Shown piece by piece: positions 4,298 to 27,605 of a DNA stretch of 64,000 nucleotides; the stretch's first letter is position 1, and each line of letters begins with the position of its first letter. Made by a program: the position numbers and the translations under genes. Origin of the DNA: Bispira polyomma. Its lineage: Eukaryota. The notes beneath the pieces were generated by a model. The model was not told the origin of the DNA and searched no databases. It saw only the letters and a list, made by a program, of their open reading frames with translations. Location: the NCBI GenBank assembly GCA_965649765.1, contig OZ287756.1:38440001-38504000 (forward strand), given 5' to 3'.

Positions 4298-7230
4298 CTT
4301 ACAATGGAATAGAATTAGGTGAAATCACATATTTCGAAAATTGTTTTGAGGTAAACGTTAACATCTTTGATAAAAAAATTCATAGTATTGTGCAAATAAT
4401 ATATTGTTCAATGGAAAAATATAACGATACAATGAACTTAAATTTGCATGAAAAGCATCTAAGTTACATTGATAATATGTCTTTAATTGCTAATAAGTAT
4501 CAATGCCTACAATGCGAAAAAAATTTCAAATCCAATTATCAACTGAAAAGACATGTGGCTGTATGTTACAACAGAACGAAGTATGATTTATCCGGAGGCT
4601 TTTACCATATCCTTAAAAATATCTTTTAGAAACTAGAAGATTACGGTATTAAGAGCAAATTACAAAACTACCCATACTTTGCAGTTTTCCATTTTGAAGC
4701 TATGTTACTTACTTATGATAATCCTCGGCCAAATGCTAAATTAAAGTATACTAAGATTCATTAGCTAATTAGCGTCTCAATTTGTTCTAATGTAAGGGGA
4801 TTTACAGAACCTAAATGTATTATAGATGAAGACATTAATGCTATGGTAAGTGAAATGGTTGATTATTTAATAGATATGGCCAATGAAGCCTTTATACAGG
4901 CTCAGGACAGATGGAGGGATACTATAGAGCAGATTAATACTGTTAAATATAGTTTTCAACTAGTAAATGAAGAACCTCTTCATTAATTTGAAACATAGGT
5001 TTCTGATTATATGAATCAATTACCTGTTCTAGGTTTCAACAGTGGTAAATATGATATAAAGTTGATTAAGACTCACCTTGCTAAACATCTGGTCAAAAAT
5101 AGCGAAAAAGATCAATACACTATTAAAAGGAATAACAACTAGTTATGTATTAGTACTAAGCACCTACATTTTTTGGATAAAACGAATTATATAGGACCAG
5201 GTTTTAATTATTCTAAATTTTTAAAATGTTATGAGGCTGGCAAGTAAAAAGGAGTTTTCCCTTATGATGGTTGGATAGTATTGAAAAATTGAATCATCCA
5301 AAAATACCACCACATGAAAGCTTTTATTCAACTCTTAAAGGACATAATGTATTAGAAAATGAAAAGAACTACGAATACATTTTAAAAGTATGGAAAGATA
5401 ATAACATGAAATCATTTAGGGATTATCTGATTTGGTTTAATAATCTTGATGTAAAACCTTTACTACAGCAGTATCTAAGATACAAAAGCATTATTTTCTA
5501 AAAAATATTGACATGTTTAAAAATTACATATCTGTCCCTGGAATAGCGCGTAACTTGTTATTTAAATCTACCAATAAACAATTTAGCCTATTAACAAAGC
5601 TAATATTGATCTATATTATACTTATAAGAATGGGATTGTTGGGGGCCCATCCATAAATTTCCGGAGATATCATGAAGTTAACAAAACTTATATACATGAT
5701 AATAAACTTAAAATTGTAAAAAATATAGAAGGACGGGACACAAATGCTTTATATGTTTGGGCAATATCTCAGAAAATCCCAACAGGTTTATTTGTTAGAC
5801 ATAGATTAGAAAGGAATTTTGCACCTGAAGTACTAATTACGTATCTAAAACAATACATATGGCTTGACTATCTGGCAGAACTAAAAGGTATTAAAATTCA
5901 ACATAAACTAAATTGTGGACAAGAATTTAAAATTGGACCTTATTATGTCCATGGATATGATGCAGAAAACATGAAAGTTATGGAATATTTAGGCTGTTAT
6001 TTTCACTATCATGATATTTGTCCTCTTATTAGGAACATAAAAAATCCAAAATGGCATGCACGTAAGAATAATGAACCAAAGATAGAACTTAAAAGGAAAA
6101 ATTTTGTCAAGTCGCTTGGGTATAATGTTATTAAAATGCATGAGTGTCTGTATCTTAAAGAAATTAAACCACATGTTAGCCATGTAAATGATCATTATTT
6201 GCCACCATTTTATAGAAAACATAAAGGAGAAGTTTCATTCAAGACGTTGATAAAAGCTATAATAAATGAAGATATTTTTGCTGTTTTTGAAATTGATGTA
6301 GAAATACCAATTACTGATGTAACTTATGATGCTATTGGACAACATATGCAGAAATATGTTATTAGATTTAATGTAAAGCAGAAACAGCGATATTTACTGA
6401 TTGGTGGAGTAAAAGCCAAACAAATCTTATTGGCTAGTTCCTTGGTAAAATAGTACTTAGAGCACGGATTGACAATACCTCATATTTATCAAATCATAAA
6501 ATATGTGCCTAGCACATGTTTTTATAATTTTACTCAAAAAATATGTAATGAACTTAGGAGCGGTGATGCCCTAGCTGATAAAGCTTTATTGGCTGAGGTT
6601 GCAAAATTAACGGATAATTGTTCATATGGTTGTACAATTATGTCTAAAGAAAAACATCTTAATATTAAGTACATTAAAGGTGAATTAGAGGCAAAAAAAG
6701 TTAACGTACCAACATTTAAAAACCTAACTGAACTTGACGATGAAATGTTTGAAATTGAGAAATATAAGAGTAAAATTAAATTAGATATTCCAATTCAAAT
6801 TGGTTACTTTATTCTGCAATATGCTAAATTGAAATTATTAGTGTTTTATTACGATTGTTTGGATTATTTCATTGATCGTTTAGATTATGATAAAAAGCGA
6901 TACTGACATTGAAAATTATGCTTTAAGTATTGCAGGACAAGTGGACTGTTTAAATTAGAAAAGGAATGTACCAAAATTATTTGTCTGGCTTCTAAGACTT
7001 ATATCATGAGTCAACATGACAATACAAATAAAGTATCTTGTAAAGGAATTAGTAAAAACAATCTATCTAATAGTATGGAGTTATTTAACCAAGTCTTAAA
7101 TGTAGGTTTTCGGTTACATGATACAAATATCTTTACCTATTTACTAGAAAATAATGGTTTTTCGTATTATTATGTTAAAAGGGAAGTTATCGATGACGGC
7201 ATCAGAACAAAACCTTTACAAATAACATTA
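4298..7230 (+). pseudogene. Protein-primed family B DNA polymerase (pPolB), many stops and frameshifts
   Basis: N-terminal C2HC finger (CLQCEKNFKSNYQLKRHVAVC); exonuclease GFNSGKYDIKLIK and GVFPYD/IEKLNHPKIPPHESFYSTLK; IVGGPS; DTNALY; KLTDNCSYG; IGYFILQYAKL; GLFKLE; SCKGIS. The DTDS motif appears deleted near 6890. A VSR-like insert lies at about 5850-6200. Confidence 0.93.
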
Positions 7231-7637
7231 AATCCTTGGAAAGACCTAATTAATGTGGTTGAAAAAGATCACAATCCCTTAGCTAATACATATATTTATC
7301 CACTAAAAATTAATGATATAACTTTTAAAAAATATTCATATTTGTTTTAACTATATAAAAAATAAATACATTAATATAAAAACAATGCAAGAATGGTATG
7401 AAATTAGATATGCAGTAATGTATGAAATGCTATATAAGAAACAAATACAATGTTCCTCTTTTAAGAAACTTTTAAGAGAAAGCCAAAGGGAATTATATAT
7501 CTTACAACATTGATACTGATTTATATTGAAACACTGGCCTGTTTAAAAACATACTGCAAGTACTTGACAAGAGATCTTATGCTGGACAAAATCAAATGGG
7601 AATACTGTTAATGAAATTAAGACAGCATTTCTTCTAA
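7230..7637 (+). pseudogene. NADAR-like domain, starting in frame with the pPolB C-terminus
   Basis: HNPLANTYIYPLKINDITF ... EWYEIRYAVMYEMLYKKQIQCSSFKKLLRES ... DTDLY*NTGL ... YAGQNQMGILLMKLR, read across two frameshifts and two stop codons. Confidence 0.7.
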
Positions 7638-8283
7638 TGATTCATTGAATAATGATTCAATTTGGGATCCTGCAAGCATATTAATATCTGGTTGTAGTAA
7701 TTCAGGTAAAACAAATTTTTTTGTGGAAATTACTTGATTTCAAAAATTACTTATTTGTTAATCAACCCCCCAAAAAATTATATTGCTACCGCATATGGCA
7801 ACTAAAATTTAACGAATTAAAAAAAGATCTAAATATAGTATTTAAACAAGGTCTGCCTGATGAAACTGATGGCCATACATTAAATGATAAAAATCACACT
7901 ATCTGCATTATTGATGATTTGCAAAATGAAGTAGCTAATAGTAAGTTTGTGGAAAAAATATACACTGCATATTGCCATCATTATCATATCTCAATAATCA
8001 CTGTCTTACAAAACCTTTTTATCAGCGGAAATGTCTACGCACTATCAATCTAAATAGCCATTAAGTTATACTATTTAATAACCCTAGAGACATAAACCAA
8101 ATCAGATATTTGAGTCAACAATTAGGAATGTGTGAACTTTTAATGGAGGCATTCAAAAACTCTAATGAACAAAAATATAACTATCTCCTAATAGACTTAT
8201 AACCTCATTTCAATTGGAAGTATAAATTAAGAAGTCACATATTACTGAATGAAGATACTATAGTATGTATATCATCGAAGTAA
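7637..8283 (+). pseudogene. A32/FtsK-like packaging ATPase
   Basis: Walker A ILISGCSNSGKT, Walker B ICIIDDLQ, HHYHISIITVLQNLF and FNNPRDINQI. The start overlaps the upstream stop (TAATG). Confidence 0.9.
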
Positions 8284-8590
8284 ACTGTCGAGGAACCTAA
8301 TTTAAAACGCAAAATATATAAAACAGCTGATACAAAGGGATAAAAAAGTAGCCTATACTAAACTAAATAATGCAACCATTAAACAAAGTAAAGCCATTAT
8401 AGAGGTGCTATACACTATACTTGAGTTAGGTCATTTAATGAAATATAAAAGTAGAATAAATAATAACAGATTTTTATCTAAAATTGTTACACAAGTATCC
8501 TTACAGAAAAGTAAGAAGTTTATAAAGAAATATATAATGCAAATAATAAGACTATTAAAATTATTGGTGATGATCTATTACAGTTTCAAA

Positions 8591-9030
8591 ATGAATAAAT
8601 TTGTTCTTGTATCATATGACAGATATTTAGAATTAAATAATAATTCTAAAGCAAAGATTTGAATATTCAGTTGATGAAACAAACTGAACCTAAAAATAAA
8701 TTATTAAATTCGAAAAGTGCAGAAATTGAACCCGACACTGAATTAGATATTCAGTTAATGAAACAGACTGAACCTAAAAATGACTTATTAAATTTAAAAA
8801 GTGCTGAAATAAAATCTAACACTGAAATTTATGAACTCCCAAAAAATTTATCAATACAAACCAGTCAAAGAAACAATCAAGCAAGGATCAAAATGACATC
8901 AAGCTTTATAAGAACAATTTATTAAATCAAATAAGTGATAATCAAATACCTCCCCCAGGGTTACCAAATATTATAATAAAAGACTTTCTGCATTAGAATA
9001 TTGGACTCATAATTGGATTATACAAATTAA
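8591..9030 (+). pseudogene. Polinton hypothetical protein (MNKFVLV...PPPGLP...W) with an internal 84-bp duplication
   Basis: Frameshifted ORF between the ATPase and the integrase; IQLMKQTEPKNxLLNxKSAEI occurs twice. Confidence 0.5.
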
Positions 9031-9041
9031 CTGAAAAAAAC

Positions 9042-10058
9042 ATGGTAGACAAAAAAAGGAATTAGGTAAAATTAAAGAAGATTATTTACAAGAACTATAC
9101 TTTAACCCTGATCACCCAGCATTGTACAGTGGTTTTAACAAGTTTTAATTTACAAAAAAATATAATAAACATAAGTTCACAATTAGGAAGATAAAAGAAT
9201 GGCTAGGACAGCAAGATACTTATACTTTATATAGAGCAATTAAAAGAAAATTTAAAAGGCCAATCACCATAGCTGTAAAAAAGATCAACAATGGATTTCA
9301 GATACAGCCAACATGATCTAATAAGAGAAACACAATAAAGGATTCAAACATTTTTGTGTTGTCATCAATACATTGACTAGATATTTATGGACATTTTTAA
9401 TGAAGACAGTAACAGGATTAGAAATGAAAAAGGGATACAACAAATCTTAAATGAAACAAACCCAAATTTTTATTCACTGACCGTGGGTCTGAGTATAATG
9501 GTAAAATCTTTAAAAAGTATCTGAAAGAAAACATAATCATAATTTTATGACTAACAATGAAACGAAAGTATCAATGGCCGAAAGGGTAATTAAAACCATT
9601 AAATTAAAACTAATTAAAAGAATGTCTTATAATAATAACCTTATATGGTATGATGGTTTAAAGGATTAAAAAGTTCACCACTGCATATAATAGTTCTAAT
9701 CATAGAATACTAAAACAATCTCTTAAAGAAGCAAGGAAAGAAGATGACTATGACCTCTGAGAAAAACTATGTATAAAAGAAAAAAATAGTTTCAAAGAGA
9801 ATATGACGAACGATTTTCAGGTGAAAATTTTTATGGTTGCTGACAGACAGATTAATCAAGGCAAAGCCAAGTATAAACTAAAAGATCTCAATAACGAATT
9901 GATAGGTGGTTATTTTTAAAATCCAGAATTACAAAGGGTATATCGGAAATACCACATATTGTATAGAAAAAATTATAAAGAAAAGAAAAAGAGCAGGAAA
10001 TACAGAATACTTAGTTAGATGGGAAAACTGTTCTTCTAAATTTGATAGCTGGACTAGA
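9042..10058 (+). pseudogene. Polinton retroviral-like integrase with C-terminal chromodomain
   Basis: LQELYFNPDHPA, WLGQQDTYTLYR, TDRGSEY, MAERVIKTIK; chromodomain IEKIIKKRKRAGNTEYLVRWENCSSKFDSW. Confidence 0.92.
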
Positions 10059-10074
10059 ACAAAATGTAACAGAC

Positions 10075-10480
10075 ATAAATTTCAAAGACATATTGTTTTA
10101 TATATATTTACAATCCACAAATTCTAAAGATTTACATCCACAAAATCACGCATGGGACTTCACAATTGATTCACTTATTTTAGACGACACATGGTACACG
10201 TGGTACACATGGTGGGCTAGCAGAAAATATTCTATGATAATAGTATTGATAGTGAGGATGTATATGTATATGCTGATCTCATACAAGAAAGTTTAGTTGA
10301 AGATTGTTATAGACCAATACTACGGATAGTTAGACAGAATATATCATTTATTATAGTGTACTTAAAACCAATAGGAAGAGAATCAATTAACAGAATCAGA
10401 ATATATATAAATAGGAAGAATTAAACTGATCCAGCTAGTAGTAATAAGACTACAGTATGTGTACTATATTTTACTAAGAT
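10075..10480 (+). pseudogene. Minor capsid (penton) protein
   Basis: FYIYLQSTNSKDLHPQNHAWDFT matches the Polinton penton N-terminal pattern (FY..L.S..S...P.N....F). It lies between the integrase and the major capsid gene. Confidence 0.7.
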
Positions 10481-10488
10481 AAATAAAA

Positions 10489-10716
10489 ATGGTTAATTGG
10501 GAAGACATATGTAACAGCATTAGGGGGGGAACTGAGCCATTTAAAAACACTATATATAGTATGGAATCAGACGAGGGAGGGACAAGTAATTTTGAGAAGA
10601 AGGTTACTATAGTATCACCTAGTGAACAACAGGTAGATATGGCTAAATCACAAATAAAGAAAAAAAAGAAACGATCACGTCATATCATTAAGAAAAAACA
10701 AATTGGAAAAAGATAA
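10489..10716 (+). CDS. Small basic, putative core/DNA-binding protein
   Basis: IVSPSEQQVDMAKSQI followed by a K/R-rich tail, directly upstream of the major capsid gene. Confidence 0.55.
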   Translation: MVNWEDICNSIRGGTEPFKNTIYSMESDEGGTSNFEKKVTIVSPSEQQVDMAKSQIKKKKKRSRHIIKKKQIGKR

Positions 10717-10836
10717 AAAAAAACACCCAAAAAACAAATTTGAAAAAGATCCAGTAAAAAAACAAAATCCAAAAAAATCAAAGGAAAAATAAAGAAAAAA
10801 GCAAGTTGAAAAAATAGGTATATATATATATAAGAA

Positions 10837-12170
10837 ATGATTTTATATTATTTAAATCAGAAATATTTAAATCAGAAACAGGAATGTAATACAAGAAAAA
10901 GTAGCATTATTTCAACCACCTTTGGTTGATCCTTCAATTGACCATATTGATTGGGTCGAGTACAGACCAAGTGGGCAAGTGAAAGACGATAGTGTTATTG
11001 AAATTAACGTCCCTGGTGATGGTGCAGATTATATTGATCTGAAACGCAGTCGGCTTCGTGTAACTTTTAAAATTGTAAAAGCTGATGGGTCTCCAATTAC
11101 AGATGCAGTATGGCAGTAGGCCCAGTATATCTTACCCTACAATCATTATTTCACCAAATGGATATATCTCTACAACAGATAAATCTATCGGCTAGAGTTG
11201 GTATTAATTACCCATACAAAAGCATTCTACACGTTTGGCTTCATAGTGGGTATAGTGATACTCTAACCTTAATGAGAGGAGAGTTATTTATAAATGATCA
11301 GGCTGGATATTATGACAATGTAACTGGAAATACCAGATTTCAATATAGACGAATACGCTGTAGTTTAAGTCAAGAAGTTGATTTATATGGCCCTTTAATG
11401 CTTGACTTAGCACAAAAAGATAGGCTTATTCTAAATGGTGTTCAAGTTAATTTCAAACTATATCCGAGTCACCTATGTCTGCTGCTACTGATACTGAAAA
11501 ATTGAAATGTGAATTAACACATGTCAGCATTGATTTATGCCAGGTAAAACTAAAACCAGAATTAGTTTTACCTCATGCTAATGCATTAAAAAGAGGTCCA
11601 GCTCTATATCCCTATGGGTGTAGCGAATTTAAAGGTTTTACAATTCCTAAAGGAACTAGAAATTGGAGTAATGATGGTACTTTTCACGGATCTGTACCAA
11701 GCCAATTAATCATACGATTTGTCCCTGGTGAAGCATATGGCGGGACATATCATAGAAATCCTCTAAATTTTGATCATTTTAATTTAAGCTTTCTAGAATT
11801 CACTGTAGATGGTATATCTGTCCCAGCTAAGCCATTCAAACCAGTATATATTACAAGAGGTGATTCTAGCATGACTAATAAAGCTACTAGTGGAAAATAT
11901 ACAGAGGCCTATAATTGTCTCTTCTTACATAAAGATGTCAACAATATGACTACTCTAATTGATTTCGGAGACTACCCAAATGGTTTCTGCTTGTATGGTT
12001 TCAATATTGACAGCAATATTGTTGGTGACCTACATAGTCATGTTAAAAAAGGTCATATCCGATTAACCGTAGATATTGGAAAAGATTTAGGTGAGAGTAT
12101 AAATGCTATTTTATACGCCAAATTTCCAGCTATATTAACTATTGATGAGGCTAGAGTTGTAGAAACATGA
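10837..12170 (+). pseudogene. Double jelly-roll major capsid protein, frameshifted
   Basis: LFQPPLVD...WVEYRP...IEINVPGDGADYIDLKRSRL, LQSLFHQMDISL, YPYKS, RLILNGV, NPLNFDHFNL, YPNGFCLYGFNI. Confidence 0.92.
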
Positions 12171-12609
12171 ATACCATTGAATTAAAATGAATTATGTTAA
12201 ATGATCCCCATATTATAATTTTATGGTGGAGTTTTAGCAGCAAATGAGTTACTATATAAAATTGCTGATACACCAAAGGCTTTAATTGTTAACACCAAAC
12301 CACATCCTCATGATGGTGAACATTGAATTAGTATCTTCATATTTAACAATTATATAGAATATTTTGATTCAGCAGGTAATAATGCCCCCAAAAACATTTG
12401 AAAATTTCTTATTAAGACATCAGGATAAATATTATAAAAACAAGGATAGATTACAAAGCTACATAAGTTCAGTATGTGGTGAATACTGTATTTTCTACTT
12501 GTATCATCGCTCAAGCAGCAAATCGATTGAGAATCTTTTAAAACATTTTACTTATACTTATCTGAAAAACGACAAAATTATCATAAAATTTAAGAATGCG
12601 TTGAATTAG
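12167..12609 (+). pseudogene. Adenain-like cysteine maturation protease
   Basis: IVNTKPHPHDGEH*(W), EYFDSAG and RLQSYISSVCGEYCIFYL (H/D/Q/C). ATGA overlap with the capsid stop codon. Confidence 0.9.
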
Positions 12610-12773
12610 AATAGGTAAGAAATTATATGAAAATTTATTCTTGCACATTACCCAATAGATTTTATTATGAAACAATGTTCTATATTTGAAAATGACCTAA
12701 TATATTTATGTGTATATAAATATTTGTTTTACAAGGTTTCCTACACTCAGTAAGATGGATTACCAATTTGTAA

Positions 12774-13440
12774 ATGATTTTGTACCATACAGACTTTCAA
12801 ATAGTAAAAAGTTTCCAAGGTGGCAGACAATGTCAATGTTTTGATCATAACAGAGTGATCTGGATTTGCATAGAAGATTTCAATAATTATAATACAAATT
12901 TACATCTGGGATCAATTATCACAGTTAAAGATATACTTCAAGCTATAGATATAATGAATAATATTTTTGAACTTAAATATAATATTAAACCTCGTAATTT
13001 ACAAGACATCTGCTTAAAAATACAAACTTGATATTGTTGACTCAGATAATCTACGATGATGCAATTGATCGTTATTATTAGGAAAAAAGTTAATTCTAGA
13101 AGAAGTCATTAATAAAATACAAATTTCCATTCGTTCACACATACCTTCAAATCAAATGGAATATCATTTAGTAAATGCAATATCAAATGGTCTAAAATGT
13201 TTATGTTTTGACCATAATCGAGTATCCTAGAGTTACATAGAAGATTACAATACTTATGATCTAAATTTAAAACCAGGCTGATCATTACTATTAGACATGT
13301 ATTACAAGATATAGATATAATAAAATCGATTTTTAAACAGCAATGTAATATGGAACCTCATACCCTGAAGAGTATTTAGGTTGAACAGATTTACTACAAT
13401 GAAAATTATGATCTTGATCTCCTACCTAACATCTAAAATT
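12774..13440 (+). pseudogene. Two tandem paralogous small accessory ORFs of unknown function
   Basis: CQCFDHNRVIWICIEDFNNYNTNLHLGSIITVKDILQAIDI versus CLCFDHNRVS*SYIEDYNTYDLNLKPG...IITIRHVLQDIDI. Confidence 0.6.
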
Positions 13441-13576
13441 GTACTGTATAAGTTACCATGAAAAGGAATAACCCAGATGGTTTAACATCTGAGATGTCCC
13501 ATCATTCCTATTGAGACATAAAGGTTATGTTAATATTATGAAATCTATGAAAAAAGTTTACACAATAACAATATGA

Positions 13577-13920
13577 AGTTAGGTAATTAGTCATTTATTT
13601 TTTAAAAAATGACATCAGATTATACAATAACAGTTTGATGTAACCAGTTATTTTTAAATGTATGACATCACTTGAATGTTTTATTATAGAATATACCATA
13701 GAAAAGGTTAGGTATGTTTTTTTTAAAATGACATCAGATGAAATTATGCAATAACAGTTGATGTAACCAGTTATTTTAAAAAATATGACATCATTGAAAG
13801 TTTTATTGTACAATATACCATAAAAAGGTTAGGTAATTTGTTATTTTAAAAAATGACATCAGATGAGATTATGCAATAACAGTTGAGGTAACCAGTTATT
13901 TTAAAAAGTATGACATCAGA
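13577..13920. repeat. ~120-bp tandem repeat (about 3 copies) with six TGACATCA motifs
   Basis: The unit GTTAGGTA...AAAATGACATCAGAT...CAATAACAGTTGATGTAACCAGTTATTTTAAA...ATGACATCA recurs. Confidence 0.85.
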
Positions 13921-13988
13921 GGGTCCTATATTAATTGGACTAGGACTATCAAGACAATCAGTGCCTTAGCTACAGAGATTTGATCAAC

Positions 13989-14753
13989 ATGGCAGAACCA
14001 ACTATTACTCAGAAAGGAGACCTGATTCTGGTATCCAAAAGAAATGAAGACGCTGTATCGGGGCTTTTCAACAATGAGATGTGTCAAGCTGCTTTCAGTG
14101 TCAACCAAACCAAGGCAGAGGCAGAACAAAAAAAAAGGAACTCCAGAAAAAAATTCAAGATATTCACAATTGGGAGTACAATAGAGGGATGGGTCTTAGT
14201 TGGCTGGACTATGAACTGTATGACAACAGCCTGGAGAGCTCCCGGACTTGGCCCAAAGCCTTGAGTGTACAACCAGATGATTTGGCTAAAGCTGGATTTG
14301 AGCACAGTGGAAAAGGAGACAGATGTAACTGCAGTTGGTGTGGCTTAGTCCTCCAGTCGTGGAACTATTTTGATGAACCATTGACTCTACACAAGAAAAA
14401 CAATCCATACTGTGAGTTTATACAAATGGTTCAACTAACCAGAGAGCACTGCACAGACTGGGAAGACATGAAGAAATATACATGACAACAGATTGGCCAG
14501 CTGTAAATCATGGTCTGATCGCAAGGGCTTGAAACCTGCACAGTTAGCAAAGGCTAGATTCCTCTACACTGGATTCGGGGACAAGGTGAAATGTGTGTGG
14601 TGTCAAGTTACGCTTGATTGTTGGGAATATTTTGATGATCCAATCACAGAGCACCAAAGGCATAAGAAAAAGAACTGTTGATATCTAGATATGATACGCC
14701 CAAGCGGGAAGGTTAAAATAAAGCAATCGAGCAATAAATTTCTTGAGCAATAA
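13989..14753 (+). pseudogene. Intronless inhibitor of apoptosis (IAP), 2 BIR domains, no RING
   Basis: LAKAGFEHSGKGDRCNCSWC...HKKNNPYC and LAKARFLYTGFGDKVKCVWC...EHQRHKKKNC. ATG at 13989; frameshifts near 14135 and 14485; AATAAA downstream. Confidence 0.9.
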
Positions 14754-14849
14754 ATTTCTATGTAATTTATTATGGAATATTGTATAATAGTATGTGATGT
14801 ATAAAATTAGTATATTGTGTAAAATTATTATATTATGAGTAATCAAGAT

Positions 14850-15096
14850 GGGCCGCCGTGGCCTAGTGGTTAGCAAGCATTGCGCTTCACAATCACTGGT
14901 CTCTCACCTCTGGGCGGCGTGAATTCGAATCCCGTCGATGCCTATGTGGAAAAGGTGGTAGTTCCTTACTGTGGGCCGCTGGTTTTAGTGCAGAACCTTG
15001 ACTGACTGTATGCAGTGTTTCCTCCATCGTTTCCAACTAGCCGTCCCAATATAACCTACTAAAGATACTAGAGTGGACGTTAAATATCCAAATTCA
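14850..15096 (+). mobile_element. tRNA-derived SINE with 12-bp target-site duplication
   Basis: A box GTGGCCTAGTGG and B box AATTCGAATCCC. TSD AGTAATCAAGAT at 14838-14849 and 15097-15108. Confidence 0.9.
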
Positions 15097-15113
15097 AGTA
15101 ATCAAGATATTGT

Positions 15114-15360
15114 TTATTATTATTATTACTATTATGCATTTTTAATGCGCTTTATTGATGCCAGGCAACTTCTAAGGCGCAACAGCAGAATCAGTGATCA
15201 AATCGTAAAGTCCATGGGCATAGCAAGGTCGTAAGGGTAGGGGGGTTAACAGCTGGTTAATCAGCAAGCAACCAGACTCGGTATTAACCCACCCCGTAGC
15301 ATCCGGCGGCAAGGGGCACAACTCCCTTTCACGCTTCACATGGTGAAGGGTGCAGTAGCC
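15114..15360 (-). mobile_element. 3' fragment of an L2/CR1-tailed SINE or LINE
   Basis: On the minus strand, a GCGCCTTAG...AAAGCGCATTAAAAATGC stem is followed by a (TAA)n tail. Confidence 0.45.
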
Positions 15361-15699
15361 ATACTTTTATATTGTTTCATTCTATATCTTGTTAAATTTA
15401 TTTGGCGACGTATTATAGATAATATACATATTCTATATAGGAAGTTTAGATTTAAAGGAAAAAAAGCTTGAAATTTACAAGATTAAAGTTTGTTTTGGTT
15501 TATATTAGATTAAGTTATAACCTCTGTATATATATATGTATCTGTATATATGTGTTGTTTGTGAAATTCACTTTTTGGTAATATAAAAAAACTGATTTTA
15601 ATTGATTTCATTTTACTGATGACTAACCCCTAAGGAGGGGGGGCCTGGCCCGCCAGATAAAATGCCCCTAAAACATATATTGGTTGGCACATGCGCAGA

Positions 15700-16083: not shown

Positions 16084-16085
16084 CT

Positions 16086-16280
16086 TAGAACTGTTGTCAC
16101 CCATGTCTCCATACAACTGAATCTCTTTTTTAAAACTTTGACCAGCCCAATATGCTGGAGAAACACATGCAGTATTAACTTTTCCTTGTTTAATGAAACC
16201 AGTGGCTGTGTCAGCGATCTCATCTTAAGTTAACTGAAGACACAACTGACACAGTTGAGATTGTAGCTGTTCTTCCAAAA
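16086..16280. repeat. Dispersed repeat X, second copy at about 22689-22925
   Basis: TAGAACTGTTGTCAC.CATGTCTCCATACAACTG...AGCTGTTCTTCCA is shared; the second copy has about 40 extra bp. Confidence 0.85.
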
Positions 16281-16294
16281 CTGAGAAAAATTTT

Positions 16295-17356
16295 ATCAAT
16301 GTATCTTTACATATATGTGTATATATTTGCATCCTGCGAAATGTAGTTTTTTGTAAAGCCCCAGTTTCAGGGTTGAAACCTCTCCCCTGTGTATTGTTGG
16401 CTAAAAAAAGGTTTCAATATAGGAAATAAACCAAAAAAAAAGAAAAGTTTTCTAATTGAATAGCTTGATCACTGATATTATTATGACTAGACCTGTTGGT
16501 GGTGTCACTGAATTGATTTGACTGAAGCCCACCATTATTACTTTGTGAAACAGATGCTTTTTACTGACATTTTCTACTTAGTTGTTTGACTGCTACTAAA
16601 AGTAAAAATAACATGTCAACTGCTAAGTTGACCAACCCTGTTAGCAAAACTACCTCAGTTCAGAATGGTTGCCCTGTTTAACTAGAACGTCATTTTAAAT
16701 TTTACCTTCTATAATTTCAAGAGGTGTTTGAGTTTTTAATTTTTTTTTTTTTGGGGGGCACGATTTCTCAGGATGATTCACAGTTTTCCTAGATGTATGG
16801 CAGCTGCTGCAGGTATGTCTCAATACCATGAATTTAAAATCATGAACCTGAATTGGTTTTATTGAATAAAGAAGTAAAAATACCTTATGCCTGAGGGTAA
16901 TTGTCATTGACAAGTTGGTCAAGCCTGTCATCTATCTGCTAGAGTGATGCTGAAGATGGCAGGCCCTTTAATGAAGCAGGTAGGGCACGATCACTGCCAT
17001 CAGCAGTGGTTGCTGTGTAGCCACAGGGAGTTCACAGTTTTCAAACTAGAAACATTCACATTTGACACTGGCATGATTGGTACCCGAGTAACATTACCAG
17101 CGTTCTGTGCTTGAAGTTGGAGTCTGAATGACAAGAAGATAGGAGGCAACTCCATTAAGGCAGGCAGATAGCGTGAGGGCTGTAATATTGTAGAGGAAAG
17201 TGTAGGTCTGGTCGCCACCAGCATAGATGGAGTGTTTAGTAATTGAGTTGCCGTGGACATATGTGACATCGTATTGATCACTGAAGGAGCTACATGGTTA
17301 GCACTATGGACTACTGAGACCACTGGGAGTCGCGATGTGGACGTGGCTGCTCTAAT
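16295..17356 (-). repeat. Dispersed repeat Y with an S/T/V-rich gag-like ORF remnant, second copy at about 33456-34970
   Basis: ATCAATGTATCTTTACATATATGTG... through GCTCTAA aligns with 33456-34781. The minus-strand ORFs 17000-17443 and 34678-35010 share PVVSVVH.ANH. Confidence 0.8.
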
Positions 17357-17449
17357 GCCATTTGAAACTGACTTCAACTCAGCCAAAACAAGAGCAATGT
17401 CATTATAAAATAAAAATGAAATAGAACATTTGTTATAGCGCACTTATAC

Positions 17450-18150
17450 AACGCCGGGCCAATTCAGTTGCACTTCCTCATGGGTAGCCACTATGGGTGC
17501 TGAGGCTTGCTTGAGGATGGCCATTTATTAACGTCCTCAAGGATCATTAATCTGCCACTGGAGATATTACTTAGTAATAGGGCCAACCATTTTAGGTGGT
17601 CATCCGAGCCACTGAGCAAACTTGTGTTCACATCTTGCCCAAAGGTGTTATCCCACCAATTGATGATAGTAGTCGGTACTGGGAATAGAACCGAGGACCT
17701 TGTGATTATCAGACTAACACCTTAACCTGGCTAGTTCCAATTTGGAGGCAATAATAAGCAGACCCAATTCCTCCAATAATTCACGCAGAAATTGGTAAGC
17801 TAAGGTGACCTTAACAGGAAGCTTAGATCTGATTATATCCTTGACGTATGTATGAACAAAGAACTGATGCTTGCAAATTGAATAAGGATACTGTCCTGCG
17901 CCTTAGAATCCCCTAAGAAGGAGAGATTAAGCTATATATCTGACCACGTCTGTGGTCCAGATACAAGATAAGGCTCCGAGGCTGAGATAAGGGGGAGATA
18001 ACTATCAACCGAAAAGTCGTGCGGCCAGCTAAGGTCTATTATAACCCATTATGTTGAGAGTCGTTCTTAGGCCTAGTTATAAATGGTGAACAATGAAGAT
18101 AAGAAATAGGTGAGTTTTTGAAGGGGCCATATATGGCTTACTTTTTAATT
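17450..18150 (-). pseudogene. DIRS/Ngaro reverse transcriptase fragment
   Basis: Minus strand reads YGPFKNSPISYLHCSPFITRPKND, VIIDLSWP and AYQFLRELLEELGL. Confidence 0.7.
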
Positions 18151-18619
18151 ACTACCTGCAAATAAAACCAAAGCAGTATGCATTGCCATTAAACTCGCAC
18201 AACATTATTTTCTTATAATGTAGCATTAGAAAATAATGTAGTGGTAGCGTTTTTCTACCATTTAATAAAGTAAATATTTAAAGAAGCATTCTTAATTTAA
18301 TTTTAATTAATGTTATTTTAGTTGGGTTGGGTTTTATAATAGATAAACAGGCCCTCTTACACCATTAAGTTTACATAATGTAGTACCACTTGGTTTTTTT
18401 CTCTATAATAATGCCAAATATGGGAAGGGTGTTGCTCGGCAGAAGAGTGGTTTTCATGTGAATTTTTTTTCGTAACCTTCAGAGGGAAAATCTAGTGGAA
18501 AACCACATGAAATTAGCTGTCAATCCCATTATTGTTAATCCTATTTTGTGTACTTGCCATGGCCATTCAGAGGACATTGGTTGTAGAAGGGGTTTTGTGA
18601 ACATTCCTGATACTTTAAT

Positions 18620-20910
18620 CATATTAAATGAATAAAGCCATCAAATCCATTGGACTGTTTAAGCCAATTTTGGAAATCTGAATTGGTAAAATCTGTTGTT
18701 TGCAACTCTTTTTCAATGACATTCTGGTGATAATTAATTTTGAGTTTTCGACATAAACTAAATTCTGGCAGATTTTGGTATGGCCTAGAAGTATCATCAA
18801 GTACTCAGAGACTATAAATTTTGAGAAGCCAAGAGGCAAGATTTTCAGCTGGAGATGCAACTACTGGACTAAATTGACTTGTTGTTCTTGGAAATTTACC
18901 AACGAAGCTGAGGGACTGTTATTACTAATTGTCTGTTTAACTTCTGGATGTTCGGGTGTGGATTAGACCTATCTTCAGAACTTTATGAGACTACAAAATG
19001 TCCTAATCTCTATCCATGATGCTAACTCCAATCGTTCTCAACTCCCTTTGAGCCCTGTTTTACGGATGACAAATTCTATTCAACAAAACTTAGAAAGTGT
19101 TTGGTATTCTGAAGCAGAGAGATGCAACTACTTGACAAAATTGTCTTTGTGTTTCTGGAAGCCATAAGCCTGTAACTGCTCAGATTGAGTTGGATGCTTG
19201 CCTAACAGAGATGGGAGGAATCCACGCCAATCAAGTATATAAAATCGAAATACCCAGTCACATACAAAATGACAACATTGCATACTTGGAAATGTTAAAT
19301 ATTGTAGTCGCTCCAAAGTTATGGGCTAAACTTGGCAGGGTCAGAAAGTGCTGGTTAAATGTGATAACCAAGCAGTGGTTAGTGTGTTACAGAATGGAAA
19401 AACCAGGAACCCAATTTTGGTGACATATGCCAGAAACATATTTATGCTGGCTAGTCAGTCAGATATTGAATTGAATGTGGTTCATAACCTGCTTAAAAAA
19501 GAACAACATTGCAGATTTGCTGTCCAAATGGACTGAAAATACAAATAATCATGCACTTTTGTTATAGTTAGAAGGACCAGTAGAGTGGCTGGCCACGCAT
19601 GAAAGTATGCTAAAAGTGAATCATAATATTTAGTCACCCATGTATTGTGTATTAATTGGAGATGCCAATGGCTTGGACACAATGCTGACCAAGCATGCTC
19701 TTGAGAGACTGAGACATGCCTTTGCACCTTTAACCACCAAGGCTTACCAGAGAATGCATAACTTGTTCTTAGCCTATGGGTTTTCATGTCATGGCCTGCA
19801 TCTAAGGTGAACTATTGTCATATCTAGAGTTTCTAGTGCATAATGCAATCTCAGTCTCCTAAATTGCTAATCATTTGTCTGCCTTTAAGGCTCAATGTAT
19901 CTTGTTCAATATCAATGTGGATGCTTTTGCTGATCCCAAGATTGGGTATTATAACAGAGCTTTGCTAATTAACAGACCTTTACAAGTAAAACTAAAGCGT
20001 TTATTTAATATCCCTCTTCTTAAAGAGTTGGTACAAAAAAGTGACCTGACGTATATGGGCCAGCCAGGTGTTCAAGACAGTATATGTAACCAGTTTCTTC
20101 AGTTTCCTCAGAATGTCTAACCTGTGCCCCCACTCAGCAAGTACTTTTTCACCATTAAAGCACTTGGCCAGGGCGGATGTTATATTTAAGCCAGGATACG
20201 CAATCATAATGGTAAAATGGTCAAAAACATTACAAACAAATGATGCAATTAGATTACTTACTCTTCCAACCATCCCGGATTTGGTGCTTTGCCCAGTCAA
20301 AGCCTTAAAAACATGGTGGGTATAACACCAGATAGCAAAAAACATGCCTCTTTTCCAATACAAAATGGTTCAAGATTGGATTCTTCTAACGGACACCTGT
20401 GTCCGCAAGAATCTGAAAAATGTATTTCAAATGTTGGGCCTAACACAATCCGGTTTGACCTTTTCACGATTTGTGACGTTCAGGTGCCACGCTTGCTTTT
20501 AATAATAATGCCCAGATGGTAGACTGCTTAAAACGGGTTCTACAGACTACCTAGTATCTGGTGTTTGGTGGGCTGACAAACCAGATTTGTCAGTCAAGTA
20601 AAGAACATAGTCAAATTGAATTAAAATTTATTAGTGGAAATATACAGTAAAATAAAATATTACTGGCTTTTGGGCATAAGGCTGCCTCTAAATTTTCAAA
20701 ATTTGTAAAACCAATTTCATCTAAGGTCACCCGAACCAAAAACTTTACTATCTTAAACTTAATATAGGGTGACCTTAAACTCAGCTAAAAGGGAACCTTA
20801 ACCTTCAACTAAGGTGACCTTATGCCCCTTTTAAAACAACTGTATATACATCAAGAATAGTTTTAACGTAGTACTAATAAAATTTGTAACCGCACTTTCT
20901 GACTTGTCTT
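18620..20910 (+). mobile_element. DIRS/Ngaro element remnant: RT/RNase H plus tyrosine recombinase
   Basis: RNase H: LDACL...NIAYLEMLNIVVA...VKCDNQAVVSVL...IADLLS. Recombinase: FFSFLRMSNLCP...VKWSKTLQT...LCPVKAL. Confidence 0.85.
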
Positions 20911-20949
20911 GGTAAATTAGTATATCATGATATCTGAAACCCATGGGGA

Positions 20950-22648
20950 CTAAGCCTTTTTTACCAAATTATATACAAATGGCAATAATATATTTCCAAA
21001 TCAAGAATGTGATGAACATAATAAGGTAAACTTTTTGAATATTTCTGATAGCACTAATGATATTTGTGAAAGAAATATTATTTTAGAGAATGTGAATAAA
21101 GCAGTAAATGAATTAGCCAGAAATCATTTGCTCCGGGTCCAGATGGAATCCCTTGGAAATTCTTTTGGAGTGAAATATCACATTTGGTTCATCAAAAGTT
21201 TCATTAATGCCTTTGATTATAGTGAACTCTTCCCTGGTCAAAAATAAGGTGTTATAAGCTTGATTCCTAAGAAGAATAAAGATTAAATAGAATTAAAATT
21301 GTGGCATCCACTATCTATCTTAAACACAGATTACAATGCTAATATTCTGTCAAACAGACTAATATCTGCACTGAATGAAGTAATAAATCCTGACCAAATA
21401 GGCTATATGGAGAATAGATTTTGTGGTGAAAACACTAAACTATTGCAGATGTAATGGATTTTTGCAAGGTGTATCAAAAGCTAAGTATTGTTCTTCTTGC
21501 AGATTTTGACAAAGCTTTTAACACAGTCAGCTGGGACTCTGAAAAAATGTACAAAAATAATGGATTTTCATTATTTATACAGATATTGAGAGCTGTGTCG
21601 CCAATAATGGTCCTCAGTCTGCTTATTTTAAGCTAGTAAGAGGTATTTAACAGGGTTGTCCGATGAGTGTGTTGTTGTTTTTTACTTATAGCCGAAGTAG
21701 TAGCCATATTTCTATGCACTACTAATACTGTTACTGGTGTATTAGTTGACAATATTAATATTAAGCTATGTCAGTTTGCTGTCAATACAAAAGATTTGTT
21801 TAGAAAATATCTTGTAAAAATATTAAACATATCAATAGATCTCCTTTTTATGAAGATTTATGTTCCATTTGGTTAAACTTTACCACAGTTGAACCTATAA
21901 ATTTTATAGATTTCTTGGAAGAACCATTATTTTATAATGACTTGTTGACTATTAATTAGAAATACATTTCATATGAATTTGCAGAGTGGTCTGCTTGTGG
22001 TATTGAAAAGGTTCGTAATATTGTAAAAAAAGATGGTACATTTCAAAGTATAATATATCTAAATGAAAAAAAATAACCTCATTACAACTGATATGAAGTA
22101 TAATCAAATTGTTAGTGTACTTCAAGGGAAAATGCATACATTGGCAAAAATAGAGAACCTTGTTTTGATGGGAAAGTACCTAAGCAGTGTATTATAAACA
22201 TTTATAAGGTCAGCAGCAAACAACTGTTACGACATTTTAATAGGTTGCATTATGTGATCCCCACCAGCCAAAATAAATGGGTAGAATACTAACCCTTTAT
22301 GGATAAAGTTAATTGGAAACATATATGTTTATTAGCATTTAAAATAGTTCAAGATACATACTCGATTACTTTCCAATACAAGATAACTCATTTTTTTAAT
22401 TTTAAAAAATGCAGACCAGCCTTTCTTTACATCAAGTGGACAAAAGTTTGGCAAATTACTACGTTTAATTTAGAGTGTCATATGAACATTGCACAGTTAT
22501 CAGTATCAGTATCACAATTTAGTCAAATATACACTACTGTAAATGATTCACCTGTATGAATGGCAGTTTCTATATTATTTTGTACTTTGCATAGACTATT
22601 TTGTAACTTATGTCATATATGTAAAAACAAATAAAATAAGAAAAAAAA
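20950..22648 (+). mobile_element. 5'-truncated, decayed Tx1/L1-like LINE with A-rich tail
   Basis: PGPDGIP, ISLIPKK, WHPLSYLNTDY, NPDQIGY, ADFDKAFNTVSW, QGCPMS, LCQFA; AAATAAAATAAGAAAAAAAA at about 22628-22648. Confidence 0.85.
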
Positions 22649-23571
22649 CCTTTATCAAGTAGCACTGCGTCCCACAAAGGCATTGAACTAGAACTGTTGT
22701 CACTCATGTCTCCATACAACTGAATTTGTTTTTTGAAACCTTGACCAGCCCAATATGCTGGAGAAACACATGCAGTATTACCTGCATTTGACTGAGATTG
22801 ATCCAGATTAATGGCATTATTAACTTTTCATTGTTTAACAAAACCAGTGCTTGTGTCAGCGACCTCATTTTGAGTTAACTGATGATGCAACTGACACAGT
22901 TGAGATTCTAGCTGTTCTTCCATAACCAAATTTTCTAATTAATTTAAGTTTTTGGGTTGGTCCCTCCACATGGCCACAAGTTGATTTAAAATGTGGTTGT
23001 TCAGTGAATTGTTTTTATGTTATATGTTTAAGAAGAAGATTGTTAAAATAAATACATGTATGGATAATGCATAGAGTGTATTAGAGATCAAAAAGATATA
23101 ACTTTTAGATTACAATGATTCCTAGAAATGTTTAAATAGAGGAAAAAATGTTGGGGAGCCATATTAACAGGAAACTTTGGTAGTATAGTATCGTCGCACT
23201 TCCTGTTATCGATCAATTTCTATTATCGATCACGAACAAATCTTCCGTTTTACTTGGTCATGTGACACGATTTTTGGGTCGAGCGGTTGTCATTCGAAAG
23301 TAAACAATATTTACGTAAATTCTACTAAAAATCAAGAAAAATAAGGTCCAAACAGGTATAAAACTTTAAAAATACAGTAAATATATGCCGAAATTGATAT
23401 AGATGCTAATGTTTATTTTTTTATAACTTTAATTTTATTATAATTGATATAAATTACCTTTTAATTATACTTTTTATAATATTCGTCTGCTGTGCAGCTC
23501 TATTTGCGCCTATCCCAAGCCAATAAATGGAAGTAAACTGTACTGTTAAATGTATCAGGACCCTGAGAAAA

Positions 23572-23681
23572 CATGTAGATTTTTAGCAAAGTTCTCCCCC
23601 CCCCAAAAAAAAAACATAGATTTTTAGCAAAGTTCTCCCCCCCTCAAAAAAAACATGTAGATTTTTAGCAAAGTTCTCCCC
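23572..23681. repeat. Short tandem repeat (3 copies) in the transposon 5' region
   Basis: CAT(GT)AGATTTTTAGCAAAGTTCTCCCC(n)A(n) occurs three times. Confidence 0.85.
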
Positions 23682-23744
23682 AATTTTTTTTATAGTTGTT
23701 TTAGTTATTATTGTTTATTGAGAGATAAAGGTGTATTATTGCAG

Positions 23745-25524
23745 ATGCATCCTGATCATATTCTGAAAAAGCGCATGCAGTATGATGCTGAACACCTAAC
23801 ATTTGCTTTAAGGGCAGTTTTAGAAGAAAGTCATTCAGTTAGAGGTTTTGCAAAGCTGTACAATGTACCTTACACTACCCTTTCTGATAGAGTAAATGGC
23901 AGAGTACCAATTGATAGTACAGGTCCAGGCCCAGCACCAGTATTAAGTCAGCCAGAAGAAAGTAAACTTGCAGATCATATTTTACACATGTCTAGCATTG
24001 GTTATGGTTATACCCGCTCTGATGTTATGGGTATTGCTGGAGAATATTTGTGTAGCATGGGTAGGCGTGAAACTGGCAAACCATTATCTGACAAATGGTT
24101 TTATAATTTTATGAAACGGTGGCCAGAGTTGAGGGTGATCAAACCAAGTGGTTTAGAATTGATTAGGGCTAGAAGCACAACTCCTGATATCATTACTAAG
24201 TACTATGTTGAACTTCATGATATGTTTGACAGACAAGCCTGAGTGTCTGTACAACATTGATGAAAAGGGTATTAACAGTGAGCATAAACCTCCCAATGTT
24301 GTCGGTGGCCCAAATTCGAAACCCCAATCCCTGATTTCACCTAAAGGTACCACAACTGTCATTGCATGCGGTAATGCAAATGGCATGTCAATTCCGCCGT
24401 TTTTTGTTTTCAAAGGTGTCAGGTTTCTTCCTGAACTTCTAAACAATTCCCTTTCTGGTTCTGATGGAACTGTATCGGATGGCCAAACAGGATGGTCAAA
24501 CAGTCAAATCTTCAAGACCTATCTTGATCACTTTTTAAGGTACAGCCAGGGTCAGGGTACAAAGCTCATACTTTTTAATGGGCACAGATCACATGTAAAC
24601 CCAGACACAATAGCCTGGGCAAAGAGTCATGACATTGTTCTTTTTGTTCTCCCCCCACATACTTCTTGGGTATTACAGCCATTAGATGTTGCCTGTTTTG
24701 GTCCCTTTTCACGCCAGTACCATCATGAAGCAAAGAAATTTATGGCAGAACATCCAGGTCAAATTATTACAAGGTACAATGTTGCAGAAATTTCTTCTAA
24801 GGCATACAGTGTAGGTCTTTCTGCTACAAACTTGAAAAGTGCTTTCAAGAAATGTGGTATTTTTCCATTTAATCCAAATGCATATGACTCTGATAAAACA
24901 CAGTCACACACTCTCTTTAGCACAGACAACTGTGAATCTGATCAAGAAATGGCAGAAATAAATGTCCCACAGAATGATGACCCAGTACCAGAAATCTCTG
25001 TTGATTCTTTTTTGAATCAAAAGGTGATTACTGCTAAAACAGTCAGGAGTAAATTTCTGCCACCAAAACCTAGAAACACTTTGAGTAGAGTCATCGCAGG
25101 TAAGGCAGTTACTGAAGATGATGTTGTGACAGACATTACCACTCATCTGTCACAACATAAAGTGTCTTGTAAAAAAACAACTGATGTCACCAAAGAAAAG
25201 GGTAAAGGAAAGGGTAAAGGCAAAAAACCTAAGGCAAAATTTGTCCCTCCATTAAAAAATGTAACGTCAGCCACTTCTGGTCCTTCAAATGTTGAAAGTC
25301 CACCAGAGATCGAAGAAGATGGCGACATTGAAGAAAGTGAGTGTTGTTGTATCTGCAAAAGTTTCTACCCCCCAAAAAAATCAAATTTGGATCACTTTTT
25401 TATTGTTAACTGGGACCAATGTAACCAGTGTTCACATTGGACACATTTGTCCTTCTGCACAAATATTAGAGTTCTCAGGAGGCATAGTGTGTTTCTATGT
25501 CCTCACTGTAAAAATGAACAATGA
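23745..25524 (+). pseudogene. DDE_1 transposase: HTH-psq, CENP-B HTH, DDE and C-terminal PHD finger
   Basis: YNVPYTTLSDR, SDKWFYNFMKRWP, YNIDEKG, ILFNGHRSH (catalytic D reads as N), LQPLDVACF, and CCICK...WDQCNQCSHWTHLSFC...CPHC. Frameshift near 24230. Confidence 0.9.
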
Positions 25525-27169
25525 ATTACATGAAATATTTTAGTTAAGCTATAATGTTAAATATGTATAGTATTAGAATATTGTAAGTTTAATGTTACTG
25601 TAAGTTTCACTAAGAGTAAGAGTAATATTTTGTACCCAAAACCCTGGCTGTACAGTTAATTTTCCTTTCCATCATTTGAGAACTCTTTAAAATTTCCATT
25701 GTTTATAAAAACCTTAAATTTGTCACACCTGGGCCGCCATATATTGGGGTTAGTACACCATTGATCACATGATCGCAAATAGGAAGTAGAATCTTGAGAA
25801 ACAAATGGTTGGATATAAGTTAAAATAGTGATACTTTAATGGCAAATTGGATAGAAAAACATGTGTGAATCAAACAAATGAGTGAAAGAGCAACTAAAGA
25901 AGACATTGAAGTGGATATCTCAAAACGGTAAGCATTTGCGTTATATTTATCGGCGTTTCGCGGCTTACGTGATCGATAATAGGGGGCGTGGGGATAGTAT
26001 AGATTTAATACTGAAGAGAAAGGTGTGGATATTAAACACTGTTGGTGTGGCATATACTTCTGTTGTTGTTATGACTTTTGTGTGTGTCACCTGTTGTGGA
26101 TATACTCTGTAAGAATAAAGTTAAAAGTAGATTGTTCCCCAAAAGAATAATGCTACACTTATATAGGTTATGCCTCTACTTAAACAAAGAAGGAAGTTTA
26201 GGAAGAGTGGAGAACTAAATACATTTTCTAAAGTAAGTCCAGAAAACCAAAAACAAAAGTCAGTGTTACAGCTCCTGGAAAACAGTAAAATGGATACAAA
26301 GAAAAAAATGGCAGAGGATCAAAGCAAAAAAGTAACTGAAGAGCCCAAAAGTCACACTGTCAATGTGAGTAAAAAACTCTATCAGAAAAGATTGCTCCGA
26401 TTATTGAAAGTATAAACAGGAGCTTGAAGACATTAACTAGCAAATTTGATGCTGTTTGTGAAACTGTGTCTTCCCATTCTACAAACATTGCAGAACTCGA
26501 GCAGGCAGTTAGTAGCACCAGCCAAGAGATTTATGCTGTTGAGACTGAAATACCAGTTCAAAGCTCTCGTCAAAAAGGGAAGACAGTCACCTTACAACAA
26601 GGCTGTTGAAAAATAAATGTTCTGAATTAGAAGCAGCACTACAAAGACAGGAATCTTTCTCAAGAAAGAACAATCTAATTTTTGATGGGGTACCGGAGAT
26701 GGAAGATGAGGTTGATTCAGAGGTTATTTTTGAGATCTTAGAATGTAAACTTTAGATTATAGATGCACAAAAAAAGGTTCAAATTTGTGAGTGTCTATCG
26801 ACTAGGCCGAAAACCAAAAGCAAAAACTTATGCAAAAGCTGCTAATAAAGATCCTCTTCATCCAAGATCCATTATAGTGAGATGTTCCAACACTGCAGAG
26901 AAACAGAGATCATGTTGTAAAACATTGCTGGGATTCAGTGCAACGACCAGAGCAGGAGAGAAAATATGGATAAACCATGATTATCCAGAAAAGATCCATA
27001 AAACAAGAAGATCGTTTCAGCCTATTTTGAAGTTTGTGAAATTTAAGGGACAAAAGTGCAGTCATTAGTGGAGACAAATTGTGATATAAAAACCAAAGCT
27101 ATTCATAAAGCGAATGTTTTGACTTGGATTTAGATATTACATCACTGAGCATGAAAAATACTGGAGTCT

Positions 27170-27605
27170 CTGTACTGTTCTATAAAGATACACCTCAGCA
27201 ATTTTTATCCAGTTAATCTCAACATAGATGGAGTGAAGTATAGTTTGGTTGAACAATACTACCAATATCAAGAAGCTCTTTTCTTTGGTAAAAACTCAGT
27301 GGGAGACGAAATCTTGTTGGCCAGCGGTCATGAAGTCATTGAACAAAAATCTGAAGGGAAAGGAGAATGACTGATACGTTACTCGAGCAGAGGAGGTTAC
27401 GAAGTTGGCTCTATTGTGTAAATTTGGACAACCAAGATTTTAAACCTTTTAAAGAACAATTAAGAAATGTTGCTGGTAGAGGCAAATAAATATGACACAT
27501 ACTTTGGAATTGGACTATCCCAACAGATCCAAGAGCTCTTATTTAAAACATGTGGACAGGGAAAAATGTGGAAATCTAATGATGCAAGTAAGGGCTGAAG
27601 CTTAG
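27170..27605 (+). pseudogene. NADAR domain at the C-terminus of LINE ORF1
   Basis: LSNFYPVNLNIDGVKYSLVEQYYQYQEALFFG...ALLCKFGQ...LLVEANKYDTYFGIGLS...WTGKN...GNLMMQVRAE, read across frameshifts. Confidence 0.88.

Follow-up and report, generated by a model that had tools for sequence, protein, structure and literature searches.

Does a domain shared by two unrelated mobile elements point to a shared task? The question is raised by a stretch of 64,000 nucleotides from Bispira polyomma (GenBank assembly GCA_965649765.1, contig OZ287756.1, positions 38,440,001–38,504,000; hereafter the window), where a virus-like DNA element of the Polinton class and a long interspersed nuclear element (LINE) lie 20 kb apart and each carry a NADAR domain. 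NADAR is a fold whose known members remove ADP-ribose from guanine. The first-pass annotation of the window had read both domains as erasers that defeat a host ADP-ribosylation defence, each attached to a core replication protein. Both domains proved real, though decayed, and both classes of element do carry NADAR; the LINE carrier is the RNA-binding ORF1 protein (ORF1p), not a replicative enzyme. The idea of a shared eraser against host ADP-ribosylation fails for its Polinton half. Judging from its residues, the Polinton domain is likely a catalytically dead pseudoenzyme, both here and across almost all lineages, fused to the protein-primed DNA polymerase (pPolB) in an ancient and apparently undescribed arrangement; for the LINE domain, N-glycosidase activity is predicted.

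The polymerase–NADAR fusion

In the window, the Polinton domain is interrupted by two stops (near 7348 and 7527) and by two changes of frame, and two pieces of it match the Pfam NADAR profile (PF08719) with E-values of 0.037 and 0.049 only. The preceding polymerase remnant is 43–51% identical to the unbroken L098 open reading frame (ORF) over amino acids 456–1566 (tblastn). The relatives L095, L098 and L104 score 39.8–45.8 bits against PF08719, and five long unbroken ORFs of 1659–1821 amino acids end in a NADAR domain at 32.6–55.1 bits, four of the five passing the cut-off of 35.1. The fusion gave more than 100 matches in this genome (searched as 1.035 Gb on 75 contigs), and the end of pPolB is joined to NADAR in 78 protein clusters at 50% identity, hereafter the outside clusters, found among the best 150 of 8856 representatives. 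The domain is optional for this polymerase family, since related polymerases without it exist: of 121 proteins, 70 matched, including some truncated fragments. Pearl oyster contributes three NADAR-less pPolB pieces to the listed protein homologues. No unbiased share of Polintons with NADAR can be given, because the profile PF03175 detects these polymerases poorly (63 matches, best E-value 2e-20).

By profile and predicted fold, the Polinton domain belongs to the NADAR/YbiA superfamily. The C-terminal 800 residues of the polymerase L101, modelled with a 65-sequence alignment, reached a predicted local distance difference test (pLDDT) value of 91.8 and a predicted template modelling (pTM) score of 0.88. 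Residues 1–617 of the model (amino acids 1000–1616) superimpose on phi29 polymerase (Z 21.5, root-mean-square deviation 4.0, 334 aligned), and residues 644–800 on the solved NADAR of P. nicotianae, 8BAU (Z 16.3, root-mean-square deviation 2.6, 157 aligned). Foldseek gave the modelled domain a probability of 1.00 to both 8BAU and YbiA (2B3W), with a Z of 14.6 to the latter, and the best viral structure match of the polymerase model is an adintovirus polymerase (E 4e-24). The predicted NADAR fold starts about 25 residues past the polymerase thumb. A complex prediction of the polymerase and NADAR parts, run without alignments, gave no answer (score 0.00). In the ESM Atlas the C-terminal part had no usable match and the 800-residue part only pPolB leads under 0.9; a scan of IMG/VR with the fusion alignment gave 26 pattern matches, none confirmed, and the listed sequencing runs included no holder of RNA. 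As a separate observation, residues 142–211 of the L101 polymerase (P0337) form an endonuclease-like insertion inside the polymerase domain (MTES_1575 E 5e-4, a PHROG endonuclease match and an I-Bth0305I fold match).

Among the closest described systems are the divergent 'Beta' Polinton and adintovirus polymerases (PMC8502044; bioRxiv 2024.03.18.585575), whose elements share with the present ones the terminal inverted repeats, pPolB, ATPase, integrase, protease, predicted capsid and BIR genes, and the phi29-like fold. The extra C-terminal NADAR sets the present polymerases apart, and the word does not occur in the main text of the 2024 and 2026 polymerase preprints. RNA virus polyproteins and nucleocytoplasmic large DNA viruses likewise have NADAR on a polypeptide with a viral polymerase (PMC9503650); the strings 'Polinton', 'adintovir' and 'retrotranspos' are absent from the accessible text of that paper. 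The pPolB–NADAR fusion was not found in the literature searched, with subscription journals, Repbase reports and bioRxiv supplements outside reach, so that an earlier mention is possible. Papers in which 'nadar' and 'polinton' co-occur were set aside as irrelevant, the strings being used there as names. Two short viral contigs (L183 and L187) have a NADAR at the end of the first ORF, just before a capsid-like ORF, and by eye resemble picorna-like RNA viruses.

Catalytic residues of the two domains

The residue register was set on 8BAU. Three of its residues, E43, K50 and E125, have equivalents in the E. coli C7 NADAR whose mutants lost activity or rescue, and its pyrophosphate contacts are W89, D130, W133 and K50 (PMC11543638). 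In 30 LINE loci, which are the top Pfam scorers, a selection that favours intact motifs, E43 and K50 are present in all 30 and E125 in 29, the remaining one having Asp. A diverse set that includes decayed copies gave E43 in 24/26, K50 in 23/26 and E125 in 25/26. The window LINE domain has Glu at the positions of E43 (27251) and E125 (27479); at the K50 position it also has Glu, and its near copies L157 and L158 have Lys. From these residues the LINE domain is predicted to work as an N-glycosidase. The LINE domains thus offer many intact animal NADARs, which could bear on why invertebrates have both NADARs and CARP-1-like enzymes.

The ORF1–NADAR arrangement of the LINE is already published: Tx1 LINEs of Crassostrea gigas have the domain in ORF1, and Gypsy elements of the brown alga Ectocarpus have it in Pol (PMC12477816). 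As there, a retrotransposon protein bears a NADAR of the YbiA family, which in the present elements closes an L1/Tx1-type ORF1. The accessible text of that paper makes no mention of Polintons, and in the present genome the module also stands on a second, unrelated type of ORF2. The ORF2s of this second type (L200 and L192) share only 25% identity with the ORF2 of L191, which is of L1/Tx1 type, and the ORF1 of these elements (in L200, ORF1 lies at 6665–7990 and ORF2 at 2282–5734, both on the minus strand) is 51% identical to that of the L1/Tx1-type L202. One module on two ORF2 types suggests an ORF1 swap between LINE clades. The ORF2s of L200 and L192 hold the motif DIETNPGP, which I take to be 2A-like and typical of CR1-group LINEs.

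The Polinton domain differs at the decisive position. In the window a Tyr (7503–7505) occupies the place of the catalytic Glu, as in unbroken relatives, and Glu at E125 was found in 0/62 Polinton domains (58 genomic, four from outside, six lacking a residue there), 0/20 further loci and 0/50 loci, three sets that overlap and come mainly from this genome. Among the 78 outside clusters the position holds Tyr in 31, Asn in 10, Phe in 9, Val in 7, Gln in 5, Ile in 3, His in 3, Glu in 2, other residues in 7 and a gap in one; by my count, 56 of the 75 residues other than Glu are either Tyr itself or a single base change away. The two exceptions, P0085 and P0089, also keep E43, K50 and W133. Since a Glu required in mutagenesis has been lost, it is improbable that the Polinton domain acts as the eraser that the annotation had supposed. 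YbiA and 8BAU, with the same fold, are stand-alone active enzymes with which the LINE domains agree at E43, K50 and E125, whereas the Polinton domain forms part of a polymerase and is without the E125 Glu in 76 of the 78 clusters (counting the gap).

Other parts of the site have decayed as well. E43 is present in 23 of the 78 clusters, and in the clade of the window Polinton the helix region of E43 and K50, ahead of the adenine-binding loop, is mostly deleted. The loop itself is degenerate: K75 and G78 each persist in 7/64 domains, and the aromatic residue at Y84 is lost. Residues of the fold persist, with W89 in 63/64 and the closing G-x-N-x-x-G in 61–62/64. The domain is nevertheless under constraint. 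For seven non-independent pairs, dN/dS of the Polinton NADAR is 0.15–0.49 (Nei-Gojobori), which indicates maintenance by purifying selection; values for pPolB in the pairs L136/L135 and L139/L141 were discarded, as they included out-of-frame stretches. The fusion adds an apparently undescribed domain to the best-studied Polinton protein, one that appears old and widespread, and selected after the loss of its catalytic residue; a Pfam NADAR match on a mobile element need not mean an eraser. P0085 and P0089, on short public contigs, provide catalytically intact natural relatives for comparison with the candidate pseudoenzyme. The LINE domains are also conserved: in seven ORF1s they are 36–60% identical, with synonymous sites near saturation, and NADAR is more conserved than the RRM and C-terminal domain (CTD) in 17 of the 21 pairs.

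A parallel case of NADAR pseudodomains, by the same residue, is given by seven large proteins (P0084, P0163, P0132, P0134, P0197, P0198 and P0222), in which 3–7 tandem NADARs mix Glu-bearing and Glu-less repeats.

Origin and possible roles

The annotation had taken the two domains to be too dissimilar for recent copies of one another, and this holds. Between the window Polinton and LINE domains there is no meaningful similarity in DNA or translation (best blastn E 0.27, tblastx E 0.12), and close relatives of each, compared over 118 amino acids, share 26% identity; this dissimilarity rejects recent copying between the elements. I also built a NADAR tree from 146 columns and 104 rows, 26 of the 130 distinct rows having been dropped as near-duplicates, frameshifted or surplus; its bootstrap had not settled. 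In it, a single branch (90/56; present in 88% of bootstrap trees) separates 47 Polinton domains from the rest, a grouping behind which long branches may stand, and a 99/90 branch sets the LINE domains apart from them. The tree holds no named bacterial NADARs, because a GTDB scan with the LINE domain gave one weak locus. In an approximately unbiased (AU) test on 48 rows, neither a joint Polinton and LINE clade (p 0.124) nor a single LINE clade (p 0.182) was rejected. Separate captures, as the annotation had proposed, are what the best tree has; with a common origin left standing by the test, they are favoured only.

The 20 kb between the elements carries no such history. The Pfam NADAR profile gave 2147 candidates in the genome, of which 150 were scored and all exceeded the cut-off; the best 30, translated, are by eye LINE ORF1s or pieces of them. 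By my arithmetic, which counts unscored candidates, the chance of finding one within 20 kb of a given Polinton is about 8%. Three overlapping searches with Polinton queries had as matches 150 of 309, 150 of 1322 and 146 of 1920 scored candidates, and two further close pairs lie 11 and 23 kb apart on contig C4. Given this density and these further pairs the adjacency is uninformative, and any meaning in the spacing was rejected: such neighbours are expected by chance, to which I would ascribe the window pair.

The reading that I prefer, at a probability of roughly 55%, is that the Polinton NADAR is a non-catalytic accessory domain beside the polymerase thumb. A single ancient capture of NADAR by pPolB would have been followed early by replacement of the Glu, probably by Tyr, and by loss of the adenine-binding loop. 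The domain would then have been kept because it grips DNA near the thumb, as its position hints, or because it braces the enzyme during protein-primed strand-displacement synthesis. The LINE would be a different matter: carried by ORF1p, an active NADAR would reach the RNA or cDNA of its own element and there clear ADP-ribose from modified guanine (or cytosine) bases, which would otherwise stop reverse transcription.

Several observations weigh against this account. K50 is kept in 31/78 Polinton clusters and D130 in 43/64 domains. The net charge of Polinton and active NADARs is alike (median +3 vs +2), which leaves the DNA-grip idea without support. The E125 position varies among active NADARs, which have Glu, Asp or His (PMC11125620), so that a Tyr-based or other chemistry is possible. 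In a polymerase-only tree of 76 rows, P0085 lies among Glu-less relatives on starred branches and P0089 near NADAR-less polymerases; as the two are not sisters, either one early loss of Glu was followed by a reversal, or there were many losses. On the LINE side, the selection of loci noted above favours intact motifs, and no host guanine transferase that would explain the domain turned up in searches that had no positive control.

An alternative that shares the loss of cutting, and which I consider unlikely, is that the polymerase once towed an eraser, which has since come to bind ADP-ribosylated guanine, or else the transferase, as a reader or decoy, letting the polymerase pass or shield a marked template. 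P0089, with its catalytic set complete, is the first to branch among the Polinton domains if the root lies outside (83/80); W89, D130, W133 and often K50, the pyrophosphate contacts of 8BAU, are partly kept; and an aromatic residue is common in the ribose pocket. Such binding is at odds with the adenine-binding loop (K75, G78, R79, Y84), degenerate in most domains, and with the large deletion of the preceding helix region in the window's clade, and there is no sign of a mark to read.

Rather unlikely, too, is a role outside defence, in which the substrates of the domains are small molecules or intermediates of the elements themselves, such as NAD-derived adducts or RNA ends, and the Polinton site has changed to suit another substrate. 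Retrotransposition is not known to involve such a substrate, which counts against this possibility, and the Polinton domains show 13 kinds of replacement residue, unlike a new conserved active site. In its favour, YbiA cleaves riboflavin intermediates, SNA-3 of C. elegans acts in trans-splicing, and guanine-ADP-ribose activity in vitro did not predict cell rescue for YbiA or a phage NADAR (PMC11125620); the processing of RNA intermediates is what the paper on the Ectocarpus and oyster elements proposes (PMC12477816).

The profiles PF22596, PF14487 and PF01375 (Scabin-like, DarT and Enterotoxin_a) gave 0 matches in the genome, in searches where control genomes were silent too and introns may split genes. 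CARP-1 homologues occur mainly in Bivalvia and are the least similar to ScARP (PMC12945103), so a CARP-1-like gene could have escaped these profiles. A PARP profile gave 44 matches; these are no obvious opponent, since NADARs do not reverse the phosphate-end marks made by PARP14 or TRPT1 (PMC11833690). Contig C1 holds, at 70.79–70.86 Mb, a tandem of three apparently intronless open frames (1640, 1988 and 2326 amino acids), each with one strong and one weak PARP match.

It is doubtful, but of wide consequence if true, that invertebrates possess an unrecognised defence by base ADP-ribosylation against mobile DNA and RNA, to which LINEs from two or more clades respond with an active ORF1p eraser. 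Polintons, too, would once have towed an eraser against it; two lineages would carry it still, and in the others it would have become a reader or decoy for guanine that bears ADP-ribose. The contest between DarTG1 and phage NADARs would then have an animal parallel, of which thousands of copies in genomes are the record. The likeness to DarT1-NADAR (DarTG1) and to gp30.3, a counter-defence of T4-like phages (PMC11543638), a mobile element with NADAR, is the logic that the annotation had followed; here there is no linked transferase, and the LINE has the Glu of YbiA rather than the Asp of the DarT1-linked (BC4488-type) enzymes or the His of phage.

The original proposal, that a CARP-1- or pierisin-like guanine transferase marks invaders and both elements carry working erasers, is very unlikely: it can draw on the bivalve CARP-1 homologues, on the suggestion that viral NADARs counter host ADP-ribosylation (PMC9503650), on the intact and conserved LINE domains and on the two outside Polinton lineages with a full catalytic set, but no Polinton inspected in this genome has the catalytic Glu (the best match to P0085 here is 44–45% identical), the transferase searches, run with no positive control, gave no match, the PARP matches are no obvious opponent, and NADAR is also found on the Gypsy elements of a brown alga (PMC12477816).

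The window and its other elements

The decayed Polinton occupies about 4.3–14.8 kb on the plus strand, with the gene order of its unbroken relatives (Table 1), and the hallmarks of the class are present: pPolB, a retroviral-like integrase, the ATPase and a cysteine protease. Two unbroken relatives have terminal inverted repeats of about 210 and 160 bp, bounding 22.3 and 19.5 kb, inside the range of 15–25 kb that marks Polintons; in the decayed window copy such repeats were looked for and none found. Neither the small ORF nor the 440-amino-acid gene matches a Pfam or PHROG family, and the latter, at the place of the double jelly-roll major capsid protein in the usual Polinton gene layout, is predicted to encode it.

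Table 1. Features of the Polinton, the LINE and the DNA between them, in window positions.
Feature	Position	Strand	Remarks
pPolB remnant	4297..7269	+	divergent type, weak PF03175 match; several stops and frame changes; short linker at end
NADAR-like domain at pPolB C-terminus	7270..7637	+	shortened type; in frame with pPolB end
Packaging ATPase remnant	7666..8274	+	51–68% to L098 ORF (tblastn); weak AAA matches in that ORF
Retroviral-like integrase with chromodomain, decayed	9068..10055	+	tblastn to L099 ORF (rve E 1e-5, Chromo E 1e-11 in L099)
Small conserved ORF	10096..10478	+	tblastn 40–47%; by position, a putative minor capsid protein
Conserved 440-amino-acid gene	10886..12164	+	tblastn 54–72%; predicted major capsid protein by size and position
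Cysteine protease remnant	12231..12591	+	Peptidase_C48 E 0.002 in relative L099
BIR (inhibitor of apoptosis) gene remnant	14051..14750	+	common to relatives; BIR E 3e-33 in L099
DDE (pogo-like) transposase remnant	23661..25524	+	unrelated, between Polinton and LINE; DDE_1 E 2e-12
Front of LINE ORF1, decayed	26300..27190	+	coiled coil, RRM and CTD by likeness to unbroken ORF1s
NADAR at LINE ORF1 end, decayed	27191..27604	+	PF08719 41 bits, E 3e-10, stops read as X
LINE ORF2 APE endonuclease remnant	28544..29083	+	35% to L004 ORF2 over 184 amino acids
LINE ORF2 reverse transcriptase remnant	31914..32728	+	RVT_1 E 3e-15 and 3e-13

The LINE has the parts of an L1/Tx1 element, namely ORF1 and an ORF2 with APE, reverse transcriptase and, in its near copy L199, zf-RVT; the two ORFs of the unbroken L191 measure 446 and 1272 amino acids. 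The window ORF1 belongs to a small family of copies with 76–89% DNA identity.

Elsewhere in the window, positions 1–1493 hold the C-terminus of a long terminal repeat (LTR) retrotransposon integrase followed by a zinc-finger ORF, and a palindromic 20-bp tandem array of about 14 copies lies at 48152–48490. Between 49100 and 61450 a multi-kb segment recurs three to four times in diverged form, at spacings of 6.1–6.9 and 2.8–3.5 kb, possibly as a local gene duplication.

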